A stretch of 28,425 bases of DNA from an uncultured Anaerolineaceae bacterium. Lineage in GTDB: Bacteria > Chloroflexota > Anaerolineae > Anaerolineales > Villigracilaceae. The first letter of the stretch is position 1, and each line of letters begins with the position of its first letter. Below, in pieces: positions 3,822-16,085 of the stretch. Below the pieces are notes generated by a model that saw only the letters and a program-made list of their open reading frames with translations, searched no databases and was not told the origin of the DNA. Position numbers and translations under genes: made by a program. The DNA is taken from positions 1 to 28,425 of the forward strand of contig CAYMQX010000001.1 of assembly GCA_964392495.1 (NCBI GenBank). The letters are read 5' to 3'.

Positions 3822-4238
3822 CTAGAACGGGAATTCATCTTCGGAAGCCGCCGAATCCTCGGCGGGGGCGGCCTCGCCATCCTGCCCGTGACTGGCGACG
3901 TCCCGACGGTCGCCCAACATCATCATCTCGTTGGCAACGATCTCGACGCTGGTGTGTTTCGAGCCTTCCTTGTCATCCCAGCGTCGGGTCTGAAGGCGAC
4001 CCTCGATAAAGACCTGCTGGCCTTTGACGAGATACTGCTTGCAGATCTCAGCGAGGTTTCCCCAGGCAACGATATTGAACCATTCCGTCTCGCTGTGGCG
4101 TTCGCCGTCCGCACTGTTCCATGACCGGCTGACAGCCACAGTGAAGGTGGTTACCGGGCGACCGGAGGGGGTGTAGCGCATTTCGGGGTCGCGCCCCAGA
4201 TGGCCAATGATCATGACTTTATTAAGGCCTCGGCTCAT
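3822..4238 (-). CDS. ssb: Single-stranded DNA-binding protein
   Basis: OB fold (LNKVMIIGHLGRDPEMRYT...EGRLQTRRW) with acidic C-terminal tip SEDEFPF. Confidence 0.98.
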   Translation of the reverse strand: MSRGLNKVMIIGHLGRDPEMRYTPSGRPVTTFTVAVSRSWNSADGERHSETEWFNIVAWGNLAEICKQYLVKGQQVFIEGRLQTRRWDDKEGSKHTSVEIVANEMMMLGDRRDVASHGQDGEAAPAEDSAASEDEFPF

Positions 4239-4282
4239 CTCAATCTCCTTGTACTCAACCGGGCAGATCTATCTCCGAAACA

Positions 4283-4567
4283 TTACCCAACGAGCGTCAG
4301 CATATGGCGGATAACCGTTTCCTGGAACCGGATATTGCGCTCGAGTTCAGCGGTGGATGCAGGGTTGAGCGAGAGGTTCAGCAGAACGTACTGGCCCTCA
4401 CGCTGCTTGCGGATGGGGAATGCCAGCCTGCGACGGCCCCAAACATCCACCTTGTCCACGCTTCCACCGGTCTCGGATACCCAGCCTTTGACGCGGTCGA
4501 GAACGCCATTAAAGGCGGTTTCGTCCAGATCGGGCTGGACAATGCAAACCAATTCGTAGTTGCGCAT
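4283..4567 (-). CDS. rpsF: 30S ribosomal protein bS6
   Basis: MRNYELVCIVQPDL...WGRRRLAFPIRKQREGQY...IRHML. Start moved to the ATG at 4567, which has SD AGGAGG, rather than the ORF-track start at 4597. Confidence 0.97.
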   Translation of the reverse strand: MRNYELVCIVQPDLDETAFNGVLDRVKGWVSETGGSVDKVDVWGRRRLAFPIRKQREGQYVLLNLSLNPASTAELERNIRFQETVIRHMLTLVG

Positions 4568-4634
4568 GGGAATGCCTCCTTTCCATGGGATTGCCACCGT
4601 TCAAGCCGAGGGCGAGCCGGCAGCGGAAAGGCAC
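4568..4634 (-). promoter_or_regulatory. S6:S18-binding ribosomal protein leader (cis-regulatory RNA)
   Basis: On the mRNA strand, CCUUUCC (4631-4625) pairs with GGAAAGG (4584-4578, overlapping the SD). An inner stem GCUGCCG/CGGUGGC (4624-4618 / 4599-4593) follows, with an unpaired CCC (4589-4587) between the stems. This is the known architecture of the S6:S18 leader. Confidence 0.8.
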
Positions 4635-4667
4635 GTTAAGGATACGTACCTGGGTCGAACGGGCGTG

Positions 4668-4695
4668 ATTTTACCACAGAACCCGGGAAATGCAG
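4668..4695 (-). promoter_or_regulatory. Putative sigma70-type promoter of the rpsF operon (extended -10)
   Basis: Minus strand TG-G-TAAAAT (4676-4668), with a weak -35 CTGCAT (4695-4690) at 16 bp spacing. It lies just upstream of the leader RNA. Confidence 0.55.
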
Positions 4696-4696
4696 T

Positions 4697-5758
4697 TCAT
4701 ACCACATGGATCGGGTTGCTGAAGATCCAGCCCCGGCGGGCTCCCAGGTAGTTCCGATAGGCTTCGATGCGGTAGACGCCGGGTGCGGTGGTAATGTGCG
4801 TGAGGGCCTGCTGGCTCTTCCATGCTTTCAGCACTGCGCCGTCCTTTATAAGGCGGAGTTCGGCAGCGCGCGGCAGGACGGCCTGCAGGGTAACACCTCC
4901 ACTGGCAGAGACTTCGCCGCCCATGATCACATTCCGTTCCCGGCCCTGGGCAGTGAAACGAAAGCCGCGCGTGGGGGCGGGGAGGTCATAGCCCACAAAG
5001 CAATTCCCGGCGGAAAGTGCCTCGTACACCATTTGCCTGTCGGTTTTGAACTCGCCCGTGAAGGACCGAGGCAGGATTACATGCGTGTTGATCGTTCTAA
5101 AGTGGAATTCGTAGGGAAAAATGATACGGCGGATGGGCCCTAAATGCCTGTGAAGGGCGTGTGCATCCGAACCGCCGATTGCCACAATGCGGCGCCCCTC
5201 ATTGAGCAAGTCGTCCCATTTATCGAGGGTGGCGACTTCAGGCCCATGTGCGATAAATTGGGGGAAAAAGGCGTGAAACATGGCGTGAAATCGGGTCGGG
5301 ATGACGGTTTTTAGCTCACTAAGCCCATTCCAGAGCTCGAGGCCGGTAAAATTCCGGACCGACCAATCCTCCCAAGTGATGGCGGTCTCATGGAACAGCG
5401 GGGCTTCGGTCTCATGAGGATGGGCCAGAAAACTCAGGCCGCCGGCCTCGCAGACAGAATCGATCAGTCTCTGAGGATCATCTGCAAGGGTAGCCAGTTC
5501 GCGCTGTGCGCCGAACACCAGCAAATGGTTCTTCTGAGGATCCCGGTCCTGGTCGTGGATCTCCTCACCGATCAGCATCAAGAGCCGGCGGTTTTTTTCC
5601 CGGTAATAGCCTTCCAGACCATCAACCAGCACATTGTGGTCGGTGACAATGAGGGCGTCGAGACCGGCGCGGATTCCGGCACGGGCGATATCCCTGTGGC
5701 TTCCGGAACCGTCTGAGTAGCGCGTGTGCATGTGAAGGTTCAGTATGATTTCGTGCAT
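4697..5758 (-). CDS. PHP-domain metallohydrolase (CehA/McbA-like)
   Basis: PHP metal ligands: LHMHTRYSDG, VTDHN, GEE, AHP and GGSDAH. The probable start is MHEIIL at 5758, because the ORF-track extension to 5833 overlaps the secG promoter and start. Confidence 0.85.
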   Translation of the reverse strand: MHEIILNLHMHTRYSDGSGSHRDIARAGIRAGLDALIVTDHNVLVDGLEGYYREKNRRLLMLIGEEIHDQDRDPQKNHLLVFGAQRELATLADDPQRLIDSVCEAGGLSFLAHPHETEAPLFHETAITWEDWSVRNFTGLELWNGLSELKTVIPTRFHAMFHAFFPQFIAHGPEVATLDKWDDLLNEGRRIVAIGGSDAHALHRHLGPIRRIIFPYEFHFRTINTHVILPRSFTGEFKTDRQMVYEALSAGNCFVGYDLPAPTRGFRFTAQGRERNVIMGGEVSASGGVTLQAVLPRAAELRLIKDGAVLKAWKSQQALTHITTAPGVYRIEAYRNYLGARRGWIFSNPIHVV

Positions 5759-10177: not shown

Positions 10178-10224
10178 CTCACGATTCATCCTTTGCTTAA
10201 CCGAAACCCCTATAATCCGATGGC

Positions 10225-11109
10225 ATGAAGCTTTTCAGGCCGGGCAAGGTATTATGGATCGTTTTAATATTGGCGGGCTTTCTGGCATTGGGGGTGACTT
10301 ATCATTTCTATGATCGCGGGCGGCCGGCACCCATACCCATCAAAAAGAAGCTATATACCGGCGTGACCTATCGCCGGATGGTGCGCTACGCTCCTCATTT
10401 CAGAATCGCACATGTCTTGACGATCGACCGCCGGACACCGGGCTTGCAGCTTTTTGTCACCCCTGCGGATCAGGCAGAAGAAGAACCGCTTCTGGCGCGG
10501 ACCACTTCTGAATTCACGGAGGAATTCGATGTCCAGATCGCGGTGAATGGGGATGGTTTCTTTCCCTGGTGGTCACGCAGCCTGGCGGATTACTATCCTC
10601 ATTCCGGTGATCCGGTGACGCCCAACGGCCTGGCTGCATCGGAAGGCTTTATTTATTCGCGGGGTGAGAGGCTGCCTCCTGAGCCGACCCTGTTCATCAG
10701 CAGGAGAGGCGAACTGACCTTCAACCGGATACCCAATCGGGTGCAATCTGCCATATCAGGCGACCGGATGATCGTCCTCAAGGGTGAACCGGTGCCCGGC
10801 CTTGATCCGAATGAACTGGATCCCCGCACGGCGGTGGGTCTCAGCAAGAACGGTCGCTGGCTGTATCTTGTCGTGATCGACGGACGCCAGCCTTTTTACA
10901 GCGTGGGGGCATCATTTTCCGAACTGGCAGATTTGATGGTCGAGGTGGGAGCTTATACAGCCATGAATCTGGATGGAGGCGGTTCATCCACCATGGTGAT
11001 CGAGGATGCCGACGGTCAGGTACAGGTGGTTAACTCACCGATCGACAGTTATATTCCAGGTCGTGAAAGACCGGTAGCCAATCACCTGGGGATCTACCTG
11101 CGAAAATGA
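10225..11109 (+). CDS. Phosphodiester glycosidase (NAGPA-like) family exported protein
   Basis: N-terminal basic plus hydrophobic segment, AVNGDGF, PRTAVG, LVVIDGRQ, AMNLDGGGSSTM and ERPVAN. Confidence 0.88.
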   Translation: MKLFRPGKVLWIVLILAGFLALGVTYHFYDRGRPAPIPIKKKLYTGVTYRRMVRYAPHFRIAHVLTIDRRTPGLQLFVTPADQAEEEPLLARTTSEFTEEFDVQIAVNGDGFFPWWSRSLADYYPHSGDPVTPNGLAASEGFIYSRGERLPPEPTLFISRRGELTFNRIPNRVQSAISGDRMIVLKGEPVPGLDPNELDPRTAVGLSKNGRWLYLVVIDGRQPFYSVGASFSELADLMVEVGAYTAMNLDGGGSSTMVIEDADGQVQVVNSPIDSYIPGRERPVANHLGIYLRK

Positions 11110-11966: not shown

Positions 11967-12902
11967 TCAGGCCGACTGTTTCGACTTGAGATCCTCCCGG
12001 GAGGCTGTCCTTATTCGGGTGATCTGTACGAGTAGAACGCCCACACCCACCAGAACCAAGCCCAGAATCTCCTTGAGAGTGAGATTCTCTTTCAGGAACA
12101 ACCAGGCCAGCACGGCGATTTGCGGCATCATCAGGCTGTTGATCACGCTGGCTTCGATGGCGGTAAGACTTTGCAGCGTGTTGTTCCAAACCGTGAATGC
12201 AAAAGCGGTATTGATCACTGCCAGCCAGAGGACGATCAGCCAATCCACGGCCGCTATTTTTCCCATTCCCTGTGTTAGGATTCCGATCAGGAGCATGGGA
12301 AACGAACCGGCTGCCATGCTGACGAAGGTAACCATCAGAGGGGAGTAGATGCGGCTGCGGTTGATGTGGCGTCCCAGTAGCGAGCCGAGGACGTTACAGA
12401 TCATGCAGAGCAGCGCAAGGGTAATACCGATCCATTGAGAACCGGAAATGGCAATTGGAAGAAAATACAGCCCCACCCCCAGGATGGTGATGACGGTCCC
12501 TGCCTGCTGCAAGGGGGAAGGGATTTCCCGCAGGACGAAGATACCGGCGATGCCCACCAGAAGGGAACTCAGGTTAAGAACCAGGCTCGTCATGGCCGCA
12601 GGAAGATAGGCGAGAGCCGCGTACTGCAAAGCCTGGGTCAGGCCGACGATCAGGACTCCGAGCAGAATTAAAATTCTCCAGTCCCTGGTTTTCAGGGATC
12701 GAAGCTCGCGGCGATAAGCGGGGTTCAGCAGGACAAATGGCGCCAGGCAGAAGAAAGCCAGGGTGTAACGGAGACCCGCAAAGGTGACGGGTGAAAGGTC
12801 GGATCGCAATCCTATTTTGATAAGGATCCACGATGTTGACCATAGGAAGGTTACGAAAACGGCCTGCAGCCTTGCTGCCAAATGAGAGGGGACGCGGGGC
12901 AT
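11967..12902 (-). CDS. EamA/DMT family transporter
   Basis: About 10 hydrophobic segments in two EamA repeats (FLWSTSWILIK, FAGLRY, AFAFTVWN, WLFLKENL). Confidence 0.9.
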   Translation of the reverse strand: MPRVPSHLAARLQAVFVTFLWSTSWILIKIGLRSDLSPVTFAGLRYTLAFFCLAPFVLLNPAYRRELRSLKTRDWRILILLGVLIVGLTQALQYAALAYLPAAMTSLVLNLSSLLVGIAGIFVLREIPSPLQQAGTVITILGVGLYFLPIAISGSQWIGITLALLCMICNVLGSLLGRHINRSRIYSPLMVTFVSMAAGSFPMLLIGILTQGMGKIAAVDWLIVLWLAVINTAFAFTVWNNTLQSLTAIEASVINSLMMPQIAVLAWLFLKENLTLKEILGLVLVGVGVLLVQITRIRTASREDLKSKQSA

Positions 12903-12908
12903 GGATCG

Positions 12909-12967
12909 ATTATGCCAGAGAATCAGAGCGCGCTGATGCGGAAGATAACAGACAAATCAGATATAAT
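12909..12967. promoter_or_regulatory. Back-to-back -10 elements for EamA (minus) and the ABC-F leader (plus), both apparently leaderless
   Basis: Minus: TG-G-CATAAT (12917-12909), 6 nt before the ATG at 12902. Plus: TATAAT (12962-12967), 7 nt before the ATG at 12975. Neither ATG has an SD, and no convincing -35 was found. Confidence 0.55.
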
Positions 12968-12974
12968 AGCCGGT

Positions 12975-13070
12975 ATGATCCTGGTGAATGAACGCGGTCG
13001 AGCGGCGATCTTCAGAGGTGTACGGGGCTTTATTTTCGGGTGGCCTCCTCGAATCGCGCCTGCCCGCTGA
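12975..13070 (+). CDS. Putative 31-aa leader peptide MILVNERGRAAIFRGVRGFIFGWPPRIAPAR (uORF of the ABC-F attenuator)
   Basis: The ATG lies 7 nt after a perfect TATAAT. The stop lies 25 nt before a strong terminator, and the 3' codons overlap the antiterminator arm. Confidence 0.55.
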   Translation: MILVNERGRAAIFRGVRGFIFGWPPRIAPAR

Positions 13071-13094
13071 GACAACCGGATTGTTGATCTCTAC

Positions 13095-13122
13095 AACCGC
13101 AGGCATTCCTGCGGTTTTTTTT
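13095..13122 (+). terminator. Intrinsic terminator (attenuator) in the ABC-F 5' leader
   Basis: aaccgcagg (13095-13103), CATT loop, cctgcggtt (13108-13116) and an 8-T tract (13115-13122). It ends 45 nt upstream of the ABC-F start, and no full-length plus-strand gene ends here. Confidence 0.85.
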
Positions 13123-13167
13123 GTTTATGTTCCACATTTTTTCTTGTTACATGGGTCGAGGAAATCA

Positions 13168-14796
13168 ATGATACAGATCCAACTTTCCAATGTAACCTTG
13201 GTGCTTGGCGCCAAAAGAATTTTTGACAGCCTGAACTGGGAGATCCAGGCGGGGCAGAAAGTCGGTCTGATCGGAGTGAACGGGGCGGGAAAATCATCCC
13301 TTTTCCGCCTTATTCTGGGAGAGTACTCTTCGGAGTTGGGAGGTGCGGTCACGCGGGGACGCCATGTGACCGTGGGCTGTCTATCGCAAGACCCGGAACT
13401 GGACCCTGCCCAGACCGCCCTGGATGCGGCCTTGCTGGGCAATCCCAGGATCGCCGAACTGGAAACCCAACTCCAGCAGGTGGAATCCAGTTTGGGCGAT
13501 CCATCCGTGTACCAGGATGAACGGAAACTGCAGAATGCATTGGAAAGGCAGCATAAACTGAATGAAGAATATCACAGGTTGGGCGGTGAGTCCTATGCCG
13601 GGCGCGTGCGAGAAGTTTTGAGGGGACTGGGCCTCGAGGTGACGGATTTTAACAGGCCAGTGGCGACGCTGAGTGGCGGTCAAAAGAAGCTGGTGGGCCT
13701 GGCTCGCCTGCTGCTGGTCCGCCCGGATGTGCTGCTGTTGGATGAACCCGACAACCATCTTGACCTGCCGGGAAAGGCCTTCCTGGAGAAGCTGATCCGT
13801 GATTATGAAGGCACAGTCGTATTGATCTCACACGATCGCTATCTGCTGGATGCAGTTGTTACACACATTGCAGAACTGGAGAACAACAAACTGCAGATCT
13901 ATCAAGGCGATTACTCCTCGTATGCAGCGGAGAAAGAAATCCGGTTGGCGAGGCAGGAGGAATTGTTCAAAGCGCAGAGTCAGGAGATCACACGTCTCGA
14001 GAGCGCCATCAAGCGTTTTGCCATCTGGGGCAAGGTGTACGATAACGAAAAATTCGCAGCCAAGGCCAAGAGCATGCAAAAGCGGCTTGATAAGATGGAC
14101 AGGATCGAGAAACCATTATCGAACCGGCGCCGAATGGAGCTGGATCTGGGTGGATGGCGCGGCTCCAACAAGGTGCTGGAACTGAAGCATGTGCAGAAGA
14201 GGTTCGGAGACCGGTGTATCTTTACGGACCTCCATGAGACGATCCGGCATGGGGAACGCGTGGGGTTGATCGGACCGAACGGTGCAGGGAAATCCGTACT
14301 GATGCGCATGGTCCTGGGAATGGAAAAGACCGATGCAGGTGAGATAAAGATCGGTCCCAGCGTGCGGATCGGATGGTATTCACAAGAGCATGAATCACTC
14401 GATCCCGACAAGACTCTGATCGAGCAGGTCCGCTATGCGGGCGGGATGAGCGAAACGCGGGCGACCGCCTTTCTGCTCCGATATCTTTTCACTTACAAAC
14501 AGGCTTCCCAGAGGATCCGGGAACTCTCGGGTGGTGAGCGCAGCCGCTTGCAGCTTGCATTGGTGGTGCTATCGGGGGCCAACCTCCTGCTGCTGGATGA
14601 GCCGACCAATAACCTGGATATCAGCTCAGCGGAGACGCTGGAGGCCGCCCTGGAAGAATTTGAGGGCACGGTGCTGGTAATCTCTCATGACCGTTATTTC
14701 CTTGATCGGACCGTCCAACGATTGCTGGCGATCGAGGGAAATGATCTGGTCTCTTATACAGGCGGTTACAGCGAATATCTTTCCCGAAGGAGCTGA
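13168..14796 (+). CDS. ABC-F family ribosome-associated ATPase
   Basis: Two NBDs (GVNGAGKS / LSGGQKK / LLLDEPDNHLD and GPNGAGKS / LSGGERSR / LLLDEPTNNLD) joined by a helical linker, with no TM segments. Start MIQIQLS at 13168 follows GAGGA. The ORF-track extension to 12988 runs through the terminator. Confidence 0.94.
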   Translation: MIQIQLSNVTLVLGAKRIFDSLNWEIQAGQKVGLIGVNGAGKSSLFRLILGEYSSELGGAVTRGRHVTVGCLSQDPELDPAQTALDAALLGNPRIAELETQLQQVESSLGDPSVYQDERKLQNALERQHKLNEEYHRLGGESYAGRVREVLRGLGLEVTDFNRPVATLSGGQKKLVGLARLLLVRPDVLLLDEPDNHLDLPGKAFLEKLIRDYEGTVVLISHDRYLLDAVVTHIAELENNKLQIYQGDYSSYAAEKEIRLARQEELFKAQSQEITRLESAIKRFAIWGKVYDNEKFAAKAKSMQKRLDKMDRIEKPLSNRRRMELDLGGWRGSNKVLELKHVQKRFGDRCIFTDLHETIRHGERVGLIGPNGAGKSVLMRMVLGMEKTDAGEIKIGPSVRIGWYSQEHESLDPDKTLIEQVRYAGGMSETRATAFLLRYLFTYKQASQRIRELSGGERSRLQLALVVLSGANLLLLDEPTNNLDISSAETLEAALEEFEGTVLVISHDRYFLDRTVQRLLAIEGNDLVSYTGGYSEYLSRRS

Positions 14797-14885
14797 GCGG
14801 ATATCAGCCAGGGCGCTGCATCTTGCATTCCGGATGAAGAAAATCGTCTTATAATTTGCTCATATTTGATTTGAGGAGATACGAC

Positions 14886-16085
14886 ATGGCTGTAAAAAAG
14901 CCAGGTGTAATTGCCATCCTGACCGGCGGCGGTGATGTACCGGGTCTCAATCCCGCCATTCGCGCGGTCACCATCCGCGCCCTGAGGGAGGGATGCAAGG
15001 TGATCGGGATCCGGCGCGGATGGGCGGGGCTGACAGAAATTATCCGGGAAAAAGATGCTGATAACAGCGGGAATTTTACAAACCTGACGGAAGAAATCGT
15101 AAATCGCGCCGGGCGCACCGGCGGAACCTTTCTGCATACCTCGCGCACCAACCCCGCGCGCATGCGGAAATCGGATGTTCCCGAGATTCTGCGCGACAAA
15201 TATATGGACGATAAAAACGATGTTACCCAGGAGGTGCTTAAGAACCTTGACTTCCTTGGGGTGGATACCATCATCCCCATCGGTGGGGACGATACACTTT
15301 CTTATGCGGTCCGGCTCTATCAGGAAGGGGTCAAGATCGTCGCGATCCCCAAGACCATGGACAATGATGTGCCGGGCACGGATTATTGCATCGGCTTCAG
15401 CACCTGTGTCACCCGAACGATCGCGCTGGCCAACAGTCTGCGTACCATTGCCGGTTCGCATGAGCGCTTCCTGGTATTGGAAGTTTTTGGACGCTATGCG
15501 GGGTTCACCGCCATGCTGCCCACCATGGCCGGAGCCGCCAACCGCTGTGTGATTCCGGAGTACCGGTTCGATGTTGACCACCTGACCAGCCTGATGAGCA
15601 AGGACCGAATGCAGAACCCCAGCCGATACTCAATCCTGCTGGTATCTGAAGGTGCCATGTTCGAAGGCGGAGAAATGGTGTTTGAGAAGATGGAGACCGA
15701 CGCCTATGGCCATTCAAAGCTTGGCGGGGTCGGAGATCTGGTCTCGGCCGCCATGCGCGGAATTTCGCCAAAATACAATAACGGGCACACCGTGGAGGCC
15801 GTAACCCAGAAACTGGGCTATATGGTGCGAGGCGGGGACCCCGACGCGATCGACTCGGTAGTGCCGATGGCATTTGGGAACCTGGCCCTGGACTTGATTC
15901 TGAAGGGGATCCACGGCCGGCTGGTGGTACTGAAGAACGGCCGCTATGATAACGTCCCCCTGGATGTGATCACATCCACCAAGAAGCTGGTCAATGTGAA
16001 CCAGTTCTATGATATGGAACGCTACCGTCCCAAGTACGAGAATTTTGAACTTAAGCCACTGTTCATCATGACAAGTGAGCTTTAA
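14886..16085 (+). CDS. pfkA: PfkA-family 6-phosphofructokinase, probably PPi-dependent
   Basis: TGGGDVPGLN, GGTFLHTSR, IGGDDT, PKTMDND and LGYMVRGG. SD GAGGAG precedes the ATG at 14886. Confidence 0.92.
   Translation: MAVKKPGVIAILTGGGDVPGLNPAIRAVTIRALREGCKVIGIRRGWAGLTEIIREKDADNSGNFTNLTEEIVNRAGRTGGTFLHTSRTNPARMRKSDVPEILRDKYMDDKNDVTQEVLKNLDFLGVDTIIPIGGDDTLSYAVRLYQEGVKIVAIPKTMDNDVPGTDYCIGFSTCVTRTIALANSLRTIAGSHERFLVLEVFGRYAGFTAMLPTMAGAANRCVIPEYRFDVDHLTSLMSKDRMQNPSRYSILLVSEGAMFEGGEMVFEKMETDAYGHSKLGGVGDLVSAAMRGISPKYNNGHTVEAVTQKLGYMVRGGDPDAIDSVVPMAFGNLALDLILKGIHGRLVVLKNGRYDNVPLDVITSTKKLVNVNQFYDMERYRPKYENFELKPLFIMTSEL

Follow-up and report, generated by a model that had tools for sequence, protein, structure and literature searches.

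The 28,425-nt stretch of DNA analyzed here (the window) comprises positions 1–28,425 of contig CAYMQX010000001.1 in assembly GCA_964392495.1, from an uncultured Anaerolineaceae bacterium (Villigracilaceae, Anaerolineales, Chloroflexota), and encodes an ABC-F ATPase preceded by a leader which is probably a ribosome-dependent transcription attenuator of the trp type, sensing the position of a ribosome on a short upstream open reading frame (uORF) and controlling read-through from a single promoter into the ABC-F gene. This assignment is based on a short open reading frame (ORF) at the start of the transcript that bears the mark of coding selection, an intrinsic terminator on the only route into the regulated gene, and an antiterminator that is mutually exclusive with the terminator and overlaps the uORF. 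The locus was read directly over positions 12700–13400, where the following elements were located.

12962–12967, forward strand: −10 promoter hexamer TATAAT, invariant in 23/23 leaders.
12968–12974, forward strand: spacer agccggt, 7 nt between TATAAT and the ATG of the uORF.
12975–13070, forward strand: uORF of 31 codons plus UGA, encoding the leader peptide MILVNERGRAAIFRGVRGFIFGWPPRIAPAR; an ORF of 31–36 codons occupies the same place in 23/23 leaders.
12975–13034, forward strand: codons 1–20 of the uORF, consensus MIYxFxxGKxPLFIGVRGFI, the proposed nascent-chain sensor, selected at the amino acid level.
13017–13028, forward strand: segment 1, codons 15–18 (GGTGTACGGGGC), candidate anti-antiterminator strand with 13058–13068 as its partner (RNAalifold consensus helix, weak support).
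13042–13063, forward strand: block conserved at the nucleotide level (GGCCTCCTCGAATCGCGCCTGC), codons 23–30, free of synonymous changes in codons 24–29.
13051–13063, forward strand: segment 2, the putative antiterminator strand GAATCGC/GCCTGC, complementary to GCAGGC (13099–13104) and GCGGTTT (13111–13117).
13069–13091, forward strand: spacer hairpin inside the antiterminator (arms 13069–13076 and 13083–13091), the 5' strand beginning at the final base of the stop codon.
13095–13122, forward strand: intrinsic terminator AACCGCAGG/CATT/CCTGCGGTT plus T run, segments 3 and 4, predicted by a terminator consensus scan.
13158–13162, forward strand: Shine-Dalgarno-like GAGGA, 5 nt 5' of the ABC-F start, from direct reading of the sequence.
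13168–14796, forward strand: ABC-F ATPase gene (542 aa), the regulated gene, identified by Pfam, NCBIfam and alignment with EttA.

The uORF runs from the ATG at 12975 to the TGA at 13068–13070, and its 31-residue product contains six arginines, while the terminator scan gives a stem (13095–13116) of 9 bp, 6 of them GC, with the loop CATT and a T run through 13122. A preliminary description of the window had already placed TATAAT at 12962–12967, the ATG at 12975, gaat at 13051–13054, gcctgc at 13058–13063, gcaggcattc at 13099–13108, the hairpin and the terminator, all of which are correct; the ABC-F gene that it put 3' of the terminator is indeed there, with its ATG at 13168 instead of 13169. 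The upstream neighbor is a divergent EamA transporter gene (11967–12902), so that the promoter of the ABC-F gene must sit within the 265-bp intergenic region.

In the proposed mechanism, the transcript would begin with the AUG or very close to it, and its leaderless 5' end would be used for initiation by a 70S ribosome. A ribosome running to the end of the uORF would cover the antiterminator strand, whereupon the terminator would form and the ABC-F gene would not be transcribed; in variants with 34–36 codons, the ribosome would instead melt the enclosed spacer hairpin, again letting the terminator form. A ribosome halted with its P site no farther along than about codon 22 would cover segment 1 and leave the antiterminator strand free, and the free strand could capture the emerging GCAGGC of the terminator 5' arm, and then GCGG(UUU) at the foot of the 3' arm, so that the polymerase would read through.

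The comparative set comprises 23 leaders obtained by two routes. Starting from the protein, one genome-contig scan and eleven exact-protein look-ups yielded 11 loci of the window clade (ABC-F 72–81% identical) and 2 loci of a second clade (ABC-F about 60% identical), which together with the window make 14 protein-derived loci; the genome-contig scan with the ABC-F protein returned only two close orthologues, its other matches being ABC-Fs at ≤53% identity. Starting from the DNA, one metagenome scan for GAATCGCGCCTG..CCGCAG yielded 120 stretches, 9 of which are true leaders and the remainder chance matches in GC-rich DNA. Twenty-one leaders entered alignment A1, and codon statistics were drawn from the 12 protein-derived loci of the window clade, which constitute an unbiased sample.

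The layout promoter–ATG–uORF–terminator–ABC-F is found at 14/14 protein-derived loci and at the 9 further metagenome loci, so that the leaderless uORF and the terminator, both noted in the preliminary description, are conserved before the same group of ABC-F orthologues. The spacer between TATAAT and the invariant ATG measures 6–10 nt (7 nt in most of the 23 leaders), the uORF keeps its length of 31–36 codons, and a variable spacer follows before the terminator, which in 23/23 leaders consists of a GC-rich stem of 7–11 bp with arms CCGCAGG/CCUGCGG and a U run. The proteins encoded downstream begin MI[QSA][IV]QLSN and similar, and purine runs resembling a Shine-Dalgarno sequence also precede their ATG in the orthologous upstream sequences. 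As the flanking genes differ between loci (EamA, PD-(D/E)XK nuclease, NYN, HlyIII, translational GTPase) and the layout stays, the leader travels with the ABC-F gene. In four loci (L001, L110, L128 and L211), only about 15–25 nt separate the terminator from the ABC-F ATG, so that the uORF and the ABC-F gene must share one promoter and transcription has to pass the terminator. The leader is missing from ABC-F paralogues with about 50% identity (L003, L004 and L007). Judging from this comparison of loci, the layout is not due to chance. The statistics of the window sequence by itself are weak, as TATAAT-N7-ATG occurs once against 0.11 expected, the 12-mer with up to one mismatch occurs once against 0.32 expected, and the single-sequence fold, in which the terminator and spacer hairpin are present, has an energy z of −1.0 and is no better than shuffled sequence; the case against chance therefore rests on the comparison.

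Several of these loci have further features of their own. Loci of the second clade carry, divergently from the leader, a gene for a translational GTPase (L212, 1–446), and the copy on the contig of P0122 has a BipA_C match (BipA/TypA type), so that a second ribosome-associated factor adjoins the ABC-F gene there. Strong terminator-like hairpins of unrelated sequence closely precede more distant Chloroflexota ABC-F paralogues (35–46% identity) in L005 (Kouleothrix, with the ABC-F start at 2501 and the hairpin about 100 nt before it) and L015 (Ktedonobacterales), and may represent other ABC-F attenuators.

The uORF shows two kinds of constraint. In codons 2–20, the pairwise differences at positions 1/2/3 among the 12 loci are 0.32/0.24/0.58, with 418 synonymous codon-pair differences, and the nine best-conserved residues (G8, P11, L12, G15, V16, R17, G18, F19 and I20) give 0.18/0.04/0.57; R17, for instance, is encoded by CGU, CGC, CGG or AGG. 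This signature indicates that the sequence is selected as a translated peptide, the consensus of which is M-I-Y-x-F-x-x-G-K-x-P-L-F-I-G-V-R-G-F-I-x-x-x-x-P-R-I-A-P-[AV]-x. Codons 24–29 give 0.08/0.19/0.03, with 0 synonymous and 99 non-synonymous codon-pair differences, and their CCU, CGA, AUC, GCG and CCU never change synonymously, which points to a block conserved at the RNA level at about nt 68–89 of the uORF (13042–13063). The amino acids at codons 23–25 vary (G/W/R/E, P/L/H/Q and P/H/Y/S), the nucleotides kept being GG and the third-position U (GG C.U ..U). Leaders differ in where the uORF stops, which is 2–7 codons beyond the nucleotide-level block and P29. In L165 (ABC-F at 3930–5558), one extra base after the GF codons shifts the frame of GAATCGCGCCTG (…VNGFSSASTVSNRACTPERP) and leaves the block intact, which is either a real frame change tolerated by the RNA element or an assembly error.

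The pattern of codons 23–25 often gives CCUCC, which is the anti-Shine-Dalgarno sequence, and in the window CCUCGA (13047–13052) is the perfect complement of UCGAGG at the ABC-F ribosome-binding site (13156–13161). Sequestration of the ABC-F Shine-Dalgarno sequence by the CCUCC-like codons 24–25 was rejected, as the pairing is good in the window and inconsistent across loci.

As the amino-acid-level conservation extends over 20 residues, and as one public gene caller has called a 34-aa ORF across the uORF in L210 (989–1093, from an upstream in-frame start), the uORF could be taken for an independent small-protein gene with its own terminator, whose peptide acts in trans and whose leaky terminator supplies the ABC-F gene constitutively. 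This is highly improbable, because the constraint at the 3' end of the uORF acts on the RNA, which is also complementary to the downstream terminator, the unit and the ABC-F gene invariably stay together when other neighbors change, several loci have no room for a separate ABC-F promoter, and no relative of the peptide was found in Pfam, NCBIfam or a large protein library. The gene call in L210 also means that some leader peptides of this family are already in databases as anonymous hypothetical proteins. The opposite view, in which the ORF is incidental and the leader is a translation-independent RNA switch whose invariant block is bound by a small ligand or a protein (such as ABC-F itself or a ribosomal protein), would account for the most invariant element being RNA (13042–13063) and for the GG, the third-position U's and, in many leaders, a GAAU without an explanatory pairing partner. 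It is very unlikely in view of the coding periodicity and synonymous drift of codons 2–20, the invariant ATG 6–10 nt after an invariant TATAAT, the maintained ORF length and the lack of any Rfam match, even at permissive thresholds. In particular, Rfam 15 gave no match in the window at gathering thresholds, and only chance-level E values of 0.86–8.8 in 12900–13200 at permissive ones.

Alternative RNA structures were predicted across the leaders. RNAalifold on the 21 sequences of A1 returns the terminator and a helix of codons 15–18 (GGNGUGCGNGGC) with GCCUGYNNGYU at the end of the uORF. The arms of the terminator, CCGCAGG/CCUGCGG, are nearly invariant and its loops are not, which fits arms that have two partners each; the foot pair covaries (GC in 14, GU in 4 and AU in 3 leaders). 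When the transcript is cut before the 3' arm of the terminator, the minimum free energy (MFE) structure contains GCCUGY:GCAGGC around the spacer hairpin in 15/21 leaders, including the window, and removal of the first ~70 nt, mimicking a paused ribosome, brings this pairing into the MFE structure of 21/21. When the whole terminator is present, the antiterminator extends, where GAAUCGC (13051–13057) pairs with GCGGUUU (13111–13117), i.e. the foot of the 3' arm and the first U's, and the terminator loop and CCU are left bulged out. The invariant 13-nt strand GAAUCGC/GCCUGC thus has complements on both sides of the terminator, in the upper part of the 5' arm and in the lower part of the 3' arm. 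The core helix GCCUGY:GCAGGC is paired in 97.6% of cells and UCGC:GCGG in 20–21 of the 21 leaders, against 22–58% for slid controls, while the full GAAUCGC:GCGGUUU extension belongs to the subgroup of leaders that includes the window. The antiterminated and terminated states lie within about 3 kcal/mol of each other in 11/21 leaders (−23.5 versus −24.3 in the window). The antiterminator proposed in the preliminary description therefore survives in its core, with the 5' strand in the last codons of the uORF, and its gaat:attc part is confined to the window; of the conservation and covariation looked for, the former is present for the uORF (23/23 leaders) and the latter is missing from the antiterminator, the columns of which are invariant.

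Other helices contribute less. The helix of codons 15–18 with codons 29–32 is paired in 88.6% of cells, and 3 pairs are changed on both sides; tested together with the terminator as one structure, 7/500 and 11/500 shuffles reach the observed values, and the covariation for this helix is weak. The spacer hairpin is predicted in most leaders with differing sequences, often starting from the stop codon, and was rejected as a strongly selected structure, its mean z against dinucleotide shuffles being only −0.6. Two other candidates were rejected. The recurrent pairing of GAAUCGC with the codons of R17-G18-F19 (GNGGYUU) does not qualify as a selected helix, because the third position of codon 18 is C in 8/12 loci, which creates a central C.A mismatch, and the pairing of the 5'-terminal AUGAU with GAAUC comprises only 4–5 bp and is broken by the common AUC codon. 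In leaders with CG rather than U after the terminator, no convincing partner of GAAU was found.

The geometry of the ribosome fits this arrangement. A scan with a 28-nt mask at each P-site position leaves the antiterminator core available for a P site up to about codon 23 and excludes it from codon 25, while the full 13-nt strand is free for a P site at about codon 22 or earlier; the earlier proposal that a ribosome halted early frees the strand and one farther along masks it is thus consistent with the footprint model. A ribosome at codons 16–20 also covers segment 1 (13017–13028). Conservation of amino acids ends at I20, and conservation of the RNA begins at the spot that a ribosome paused at codons 19–21 would reach with its leading edge. 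As residues 1–20 are kept as amino acids and the RNA block starts at the leading edge of the paused ribosome, what holds the ribosome is most likely the nascent chain MIYxFxxGKxPLFIGVRGFI, through a programmed arrest in the exit tunnel, rather than mere slowness. The trigger could be a ribosome-targeting compound, or the arrest could be intrinsic and relieved by ABC-F itself, giving negative feedback.

A different site of arrest would be the C-terminal R-I-A-P or the UGA, where a stalled ribosome would mask the antiterminator and keep the terminator on, and expression would rise when ribosomes miss the site. RIAP occurs in 17/21 aligned leaders, its R-x-x-P spacing resembles the RAGP of SecM and the RAPP motifs (PMC12992588, PMC11162784), UGA is the stop in 12/12 window-clade loci, and the nucleotide block 13042–13063 corresponds approximately to the footprint of a ribosome with codon 27–28 in the P site. 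An arrest here is nevertheless unlikely. Since codons 26–29 show no synonymous change, the constraint is on the RNA and amino acid selection cannot be demonstrated there; the residues are replaceable (three leaders have G for R, and one has N for I), the block of L165 is in another frame, and the stop falls 2–7 codons beyond P29 in different leaders. The motif is moreover R-I-A-P-[AV] and not RAPP, RGPP or RAGP, the conservation of residues 1–20 is explained only loosely, and such a stall by itself cannot induce the gene and would only enforce termination.

The preliminary description had proposed a sensor for a drug-induced or a diprolyl/Arg-rich stall, one version of which is a polyproline-type stall at W23-P24-P25 that would be rescued by ABC-F. 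The window does contain WPP, PP occupies positions 24–25 in 6/21 aligned leaders, and Uup-type ABC-Fs relieve polyproline stalls in E. coli (PMC11162784). Positions 23–24 are, however, the least conserved of the peptide (W/G/R/E and P/L/H/Q), PP is absent from 15/21 aligned leaders, the richness in Arg is restricted to the window, and with P24 in the P site the leading edge would be at about nt 82–85 of the uORF, overlapping the antiterminator strand, so that this version is hardly tenable. The more general idea of a feedback sensor contained in that description is plausible by analogy with known systems.

The regulated protein itself bears on what may be sensed. The ABC-F of 542 aa contains two ABC_tran domains and the ABC_tran_Xtn linker in Pfam and has thousands of relatives, the best 120 of which are 71–81% identical, the named ones coming from metagenome-assembled genomes (MAGs) of Anaerolineales/Chloroflexota. 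The only NCBIfam model passed was the generic NF000355 'ribosomal protection-like ABC-F' (447.6 bits against a cut-off of 380); the EttA models (NF008775, 408 against 599; TIGR03719, 404 against 807) and the Uup model failed, as did all named families of antibiotic-resistance (ARE) ABC-Fs, i.e. Vga, Msr, Sal, Lsa, OptrA, CplR and the producer type, the best ARE-specific scores being 215–321 bits against cut-offs of 680–1450. In alignments to solved structures, the protein is collinear with E. coli EttA over ABC-F residues 16–538, including the arm insertion, while the resistance factor VmlR2 aligns in pieces only and without the arm; from the alignment, the inter-domain linker is estimated to be about 7 residues longer than that of EttA. 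ARE ABC-Fs have an extended inter-domain linker (the antibiotic resistance domain, ARD), typically without the arm subdomain, and this combination is not found here. The protein thus has an EttA-like architecture and a clade of its own, and is neither an EttA orthologue nor a recognizable ARE. From its 72–81% identity across many MAGs, it looks like a core gene of Anaerolineales.

These properties lead to a more specific and tentative proposal, for which the odds are well short of even: the uORF may encode a new intrinsic arrest peptide, and the EttA-like ABC-F encoded downstream may be the specific factor that resolves its stall, the two forming a homeostat. In such a circuit, too little ABC-F would cause the stall at about codon 20, which would result in read-through and in more ABC-F.

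Several points weigh against the attenuator. The start site of transcription, the translation of the uORF and the function of the terminator are inferred from sequence. In two divergent leaders, GVRGFI is degraded (GRRGSD in L185) or out of frame with the RNA block (L165), and neither a known arrest motif nor a known protein family was recognized in the peptide: the leader peptides had no match in Pfam and NCBIfam at E up to 10, and the peptide of the window had none at E ≤ 0.001 among 1.84 billion representative proteins, a search for which it is probably too short to score. No pairing was found that explains the invariant GG and the third-position U's of codons 23–25. As the columns of the antiterminator and of most of the terminator are invariant, there is no covariation and the support comes from conserved complementarity; the AAU:UUU part of the extension occurs in only 7–10 leaders, about a third, and in untranslated RNA the strand pairs upstream with codons 7–9 in some sequences and with codons 15–18 in others. 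Full-length RNA at equilibrium favors the terminator in nearly every sequence and at nearly every ribosome position, so that the decision to read through has to be kinetic, as in other attenuators. Equilibrium folding of full-length leaders was accordingly rejected as a model of the switch, since the terminator dominates whatever the mask and no switch is reproduced.

Leader-peptide control has been described for other ABC-Fs. MsrD represses its own MsrDL-dependent induction, and msrD is attenuated through its leader peptide (PMC10314930); Streptomyces ARE5 ABC-F factors tune their own attenuators (PMC12421871). The leaders of ARE ABC-Fs (msrD/MsrDL, vmlR, vga(A) and Streptomyces tiaA/are5sc) resemble the present one in having a uORF, a Rho-independent terminator and a competing structure before the ABC-F gene, where a stalled ribosome blocks the terminator and ABC-F can damp its own induction (PMC10314930, PMC12421871). 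The present leader differs in being leaderless and long (31–36 codons), in its 20-residue peptide unrelated to MsrDL and in its non-ARE, apparently core ABC-F. EttA, a housekeeping ABC-F, alters the outcome at the MgtL leader, where it assists the ribosome in passing a difficult sequence near the start (PMC11282234), and the E. coli ABC-Fs each relieve particular nascent-chain stalls, YheS releasing the arrest of SecM (PMC11162784). EttA–MgtL likewise pairs a housekeeping ABC-F with a leader-peptide attenuator (PMC11282234), although MgtL governs a Mg2+ transporter through Rho-dependent termination, and the leader here is proposed, from its sequence, to govern the ABC-F gene itself through an intrinsic terminator.

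The trp, his and pheST attenuators share with the present leader the four segments, the uORF over segments 1 and 2, the 2:3 antiterminator, the 3:4 terminator and a decision taken by ribosome position. They differ in that the present uORF has no run of codons for one amino acid, its whole N-terminal peptide is conserved and its antiterminator strand pairs with both arms of the terminator. Mycobacterial leaderless polycysteine uORFs, which are attenuators acting by ribosome stalling (bioRxiv 10.1101/834739), also begin at the very start of the transcript, immediately behind the −10 box, and control downstream genes; their Cys codons respond to the supply of cysteine and their targets are cysteine-related operons, whereas no amino acid bias is found here and the target is a translation factor. 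SecM, MifM, the RAPP/RGPP peptides and TnaC, too, are conserved nascent chains about as long as the tunnel, encoded ahead of the gene that they regulate, and RIAP shares its R-x-x-P spacing with RAGP/RAPP (PMC12992588); here there is no sequence similarity, the RIAP codons are constrained as RNA, and the proposed output is transcriptional read-through and not exposure of a Shine-Dalgarno sequence. Overall, the logic appears to be that of trp, the context most like that of the resistance ABC-F leaders and the start like that of the mycobacterial polycysteine uORFs. No paper on ABC-F uORFs together with Chloroflexi was found in the literature, and from these comparisons the leader seems to belong to no described leader, RNA or peptide family. 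Its distinctive traits are the leaderless start, the conserved nascent chain of 20 residues, the two-armed antiterminator strand and the non-ARE, apparently core ABC-F target.

The uORF transcript is inferred to be leaderless or nearly so, from TATAAT 7 nt before the AUG, and no conserved −35 element was found among the leaders. Other genes in the window have similar starts. The EamA gene (minus strand) has CATAAT at 12914–12909, followed after 6 nt by the ATG at 12902–12900, and the stretch CGATTATGCCAGA is kept in several orthologous loci (L001, L002, L081, L206 and L209). The NAGPA-type phosphodiester glycosidase gene (10225–11109) shows TATAAT, 8 nt and ATG (10211–10227), the third leaderless-looking start within 3 kb. 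The starts of these two genes, 6 and 8 nt after −10-like hexamers, suggest that leaderless mRNAs are common in the source organism. The phosphofructokinase ORF is listed from the TTG at 14856, right after TATAAT (14850–14855); its real start is more likely the ATG at 14886 (MAVKKPG...), which is preceded by GAAGG, so that this gene would have its own promoter immediately 3' of the ABC-F stop codon.

ABC-F ATPases are widespread ribosome factors, and to our knowledge the natural substrates of most of them are not known beyond a few examples from E. coli, Bacillus and resistance. A conserved sensor before a gene normally reports what the factor handles, and the candidate sensor here is a nascent chain of 20 residues kept across a whole order of Chloroflexota. 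With a well-delimited example, the leader would extend leaderless leader-peptide attenuators beyond Actinobacteria and Proteobacteria, and it would provide an antiterminator strand holding both arms of its own terminator, and the approximately 23 sequences supply the basis for an RNA family and a peptide family with which Anaerolineales genomes can be annotated. If the homeostat is true, a core, non-resistance ABC-F translation factor would for the first time be seen to gauge its own activity on a dedicated nascent-chain substrate, as the ABC-F counterpart of SecM–SecA or MifM–YidC, and the leader peptide would reveal the natural substrate of this ABC-F clade.

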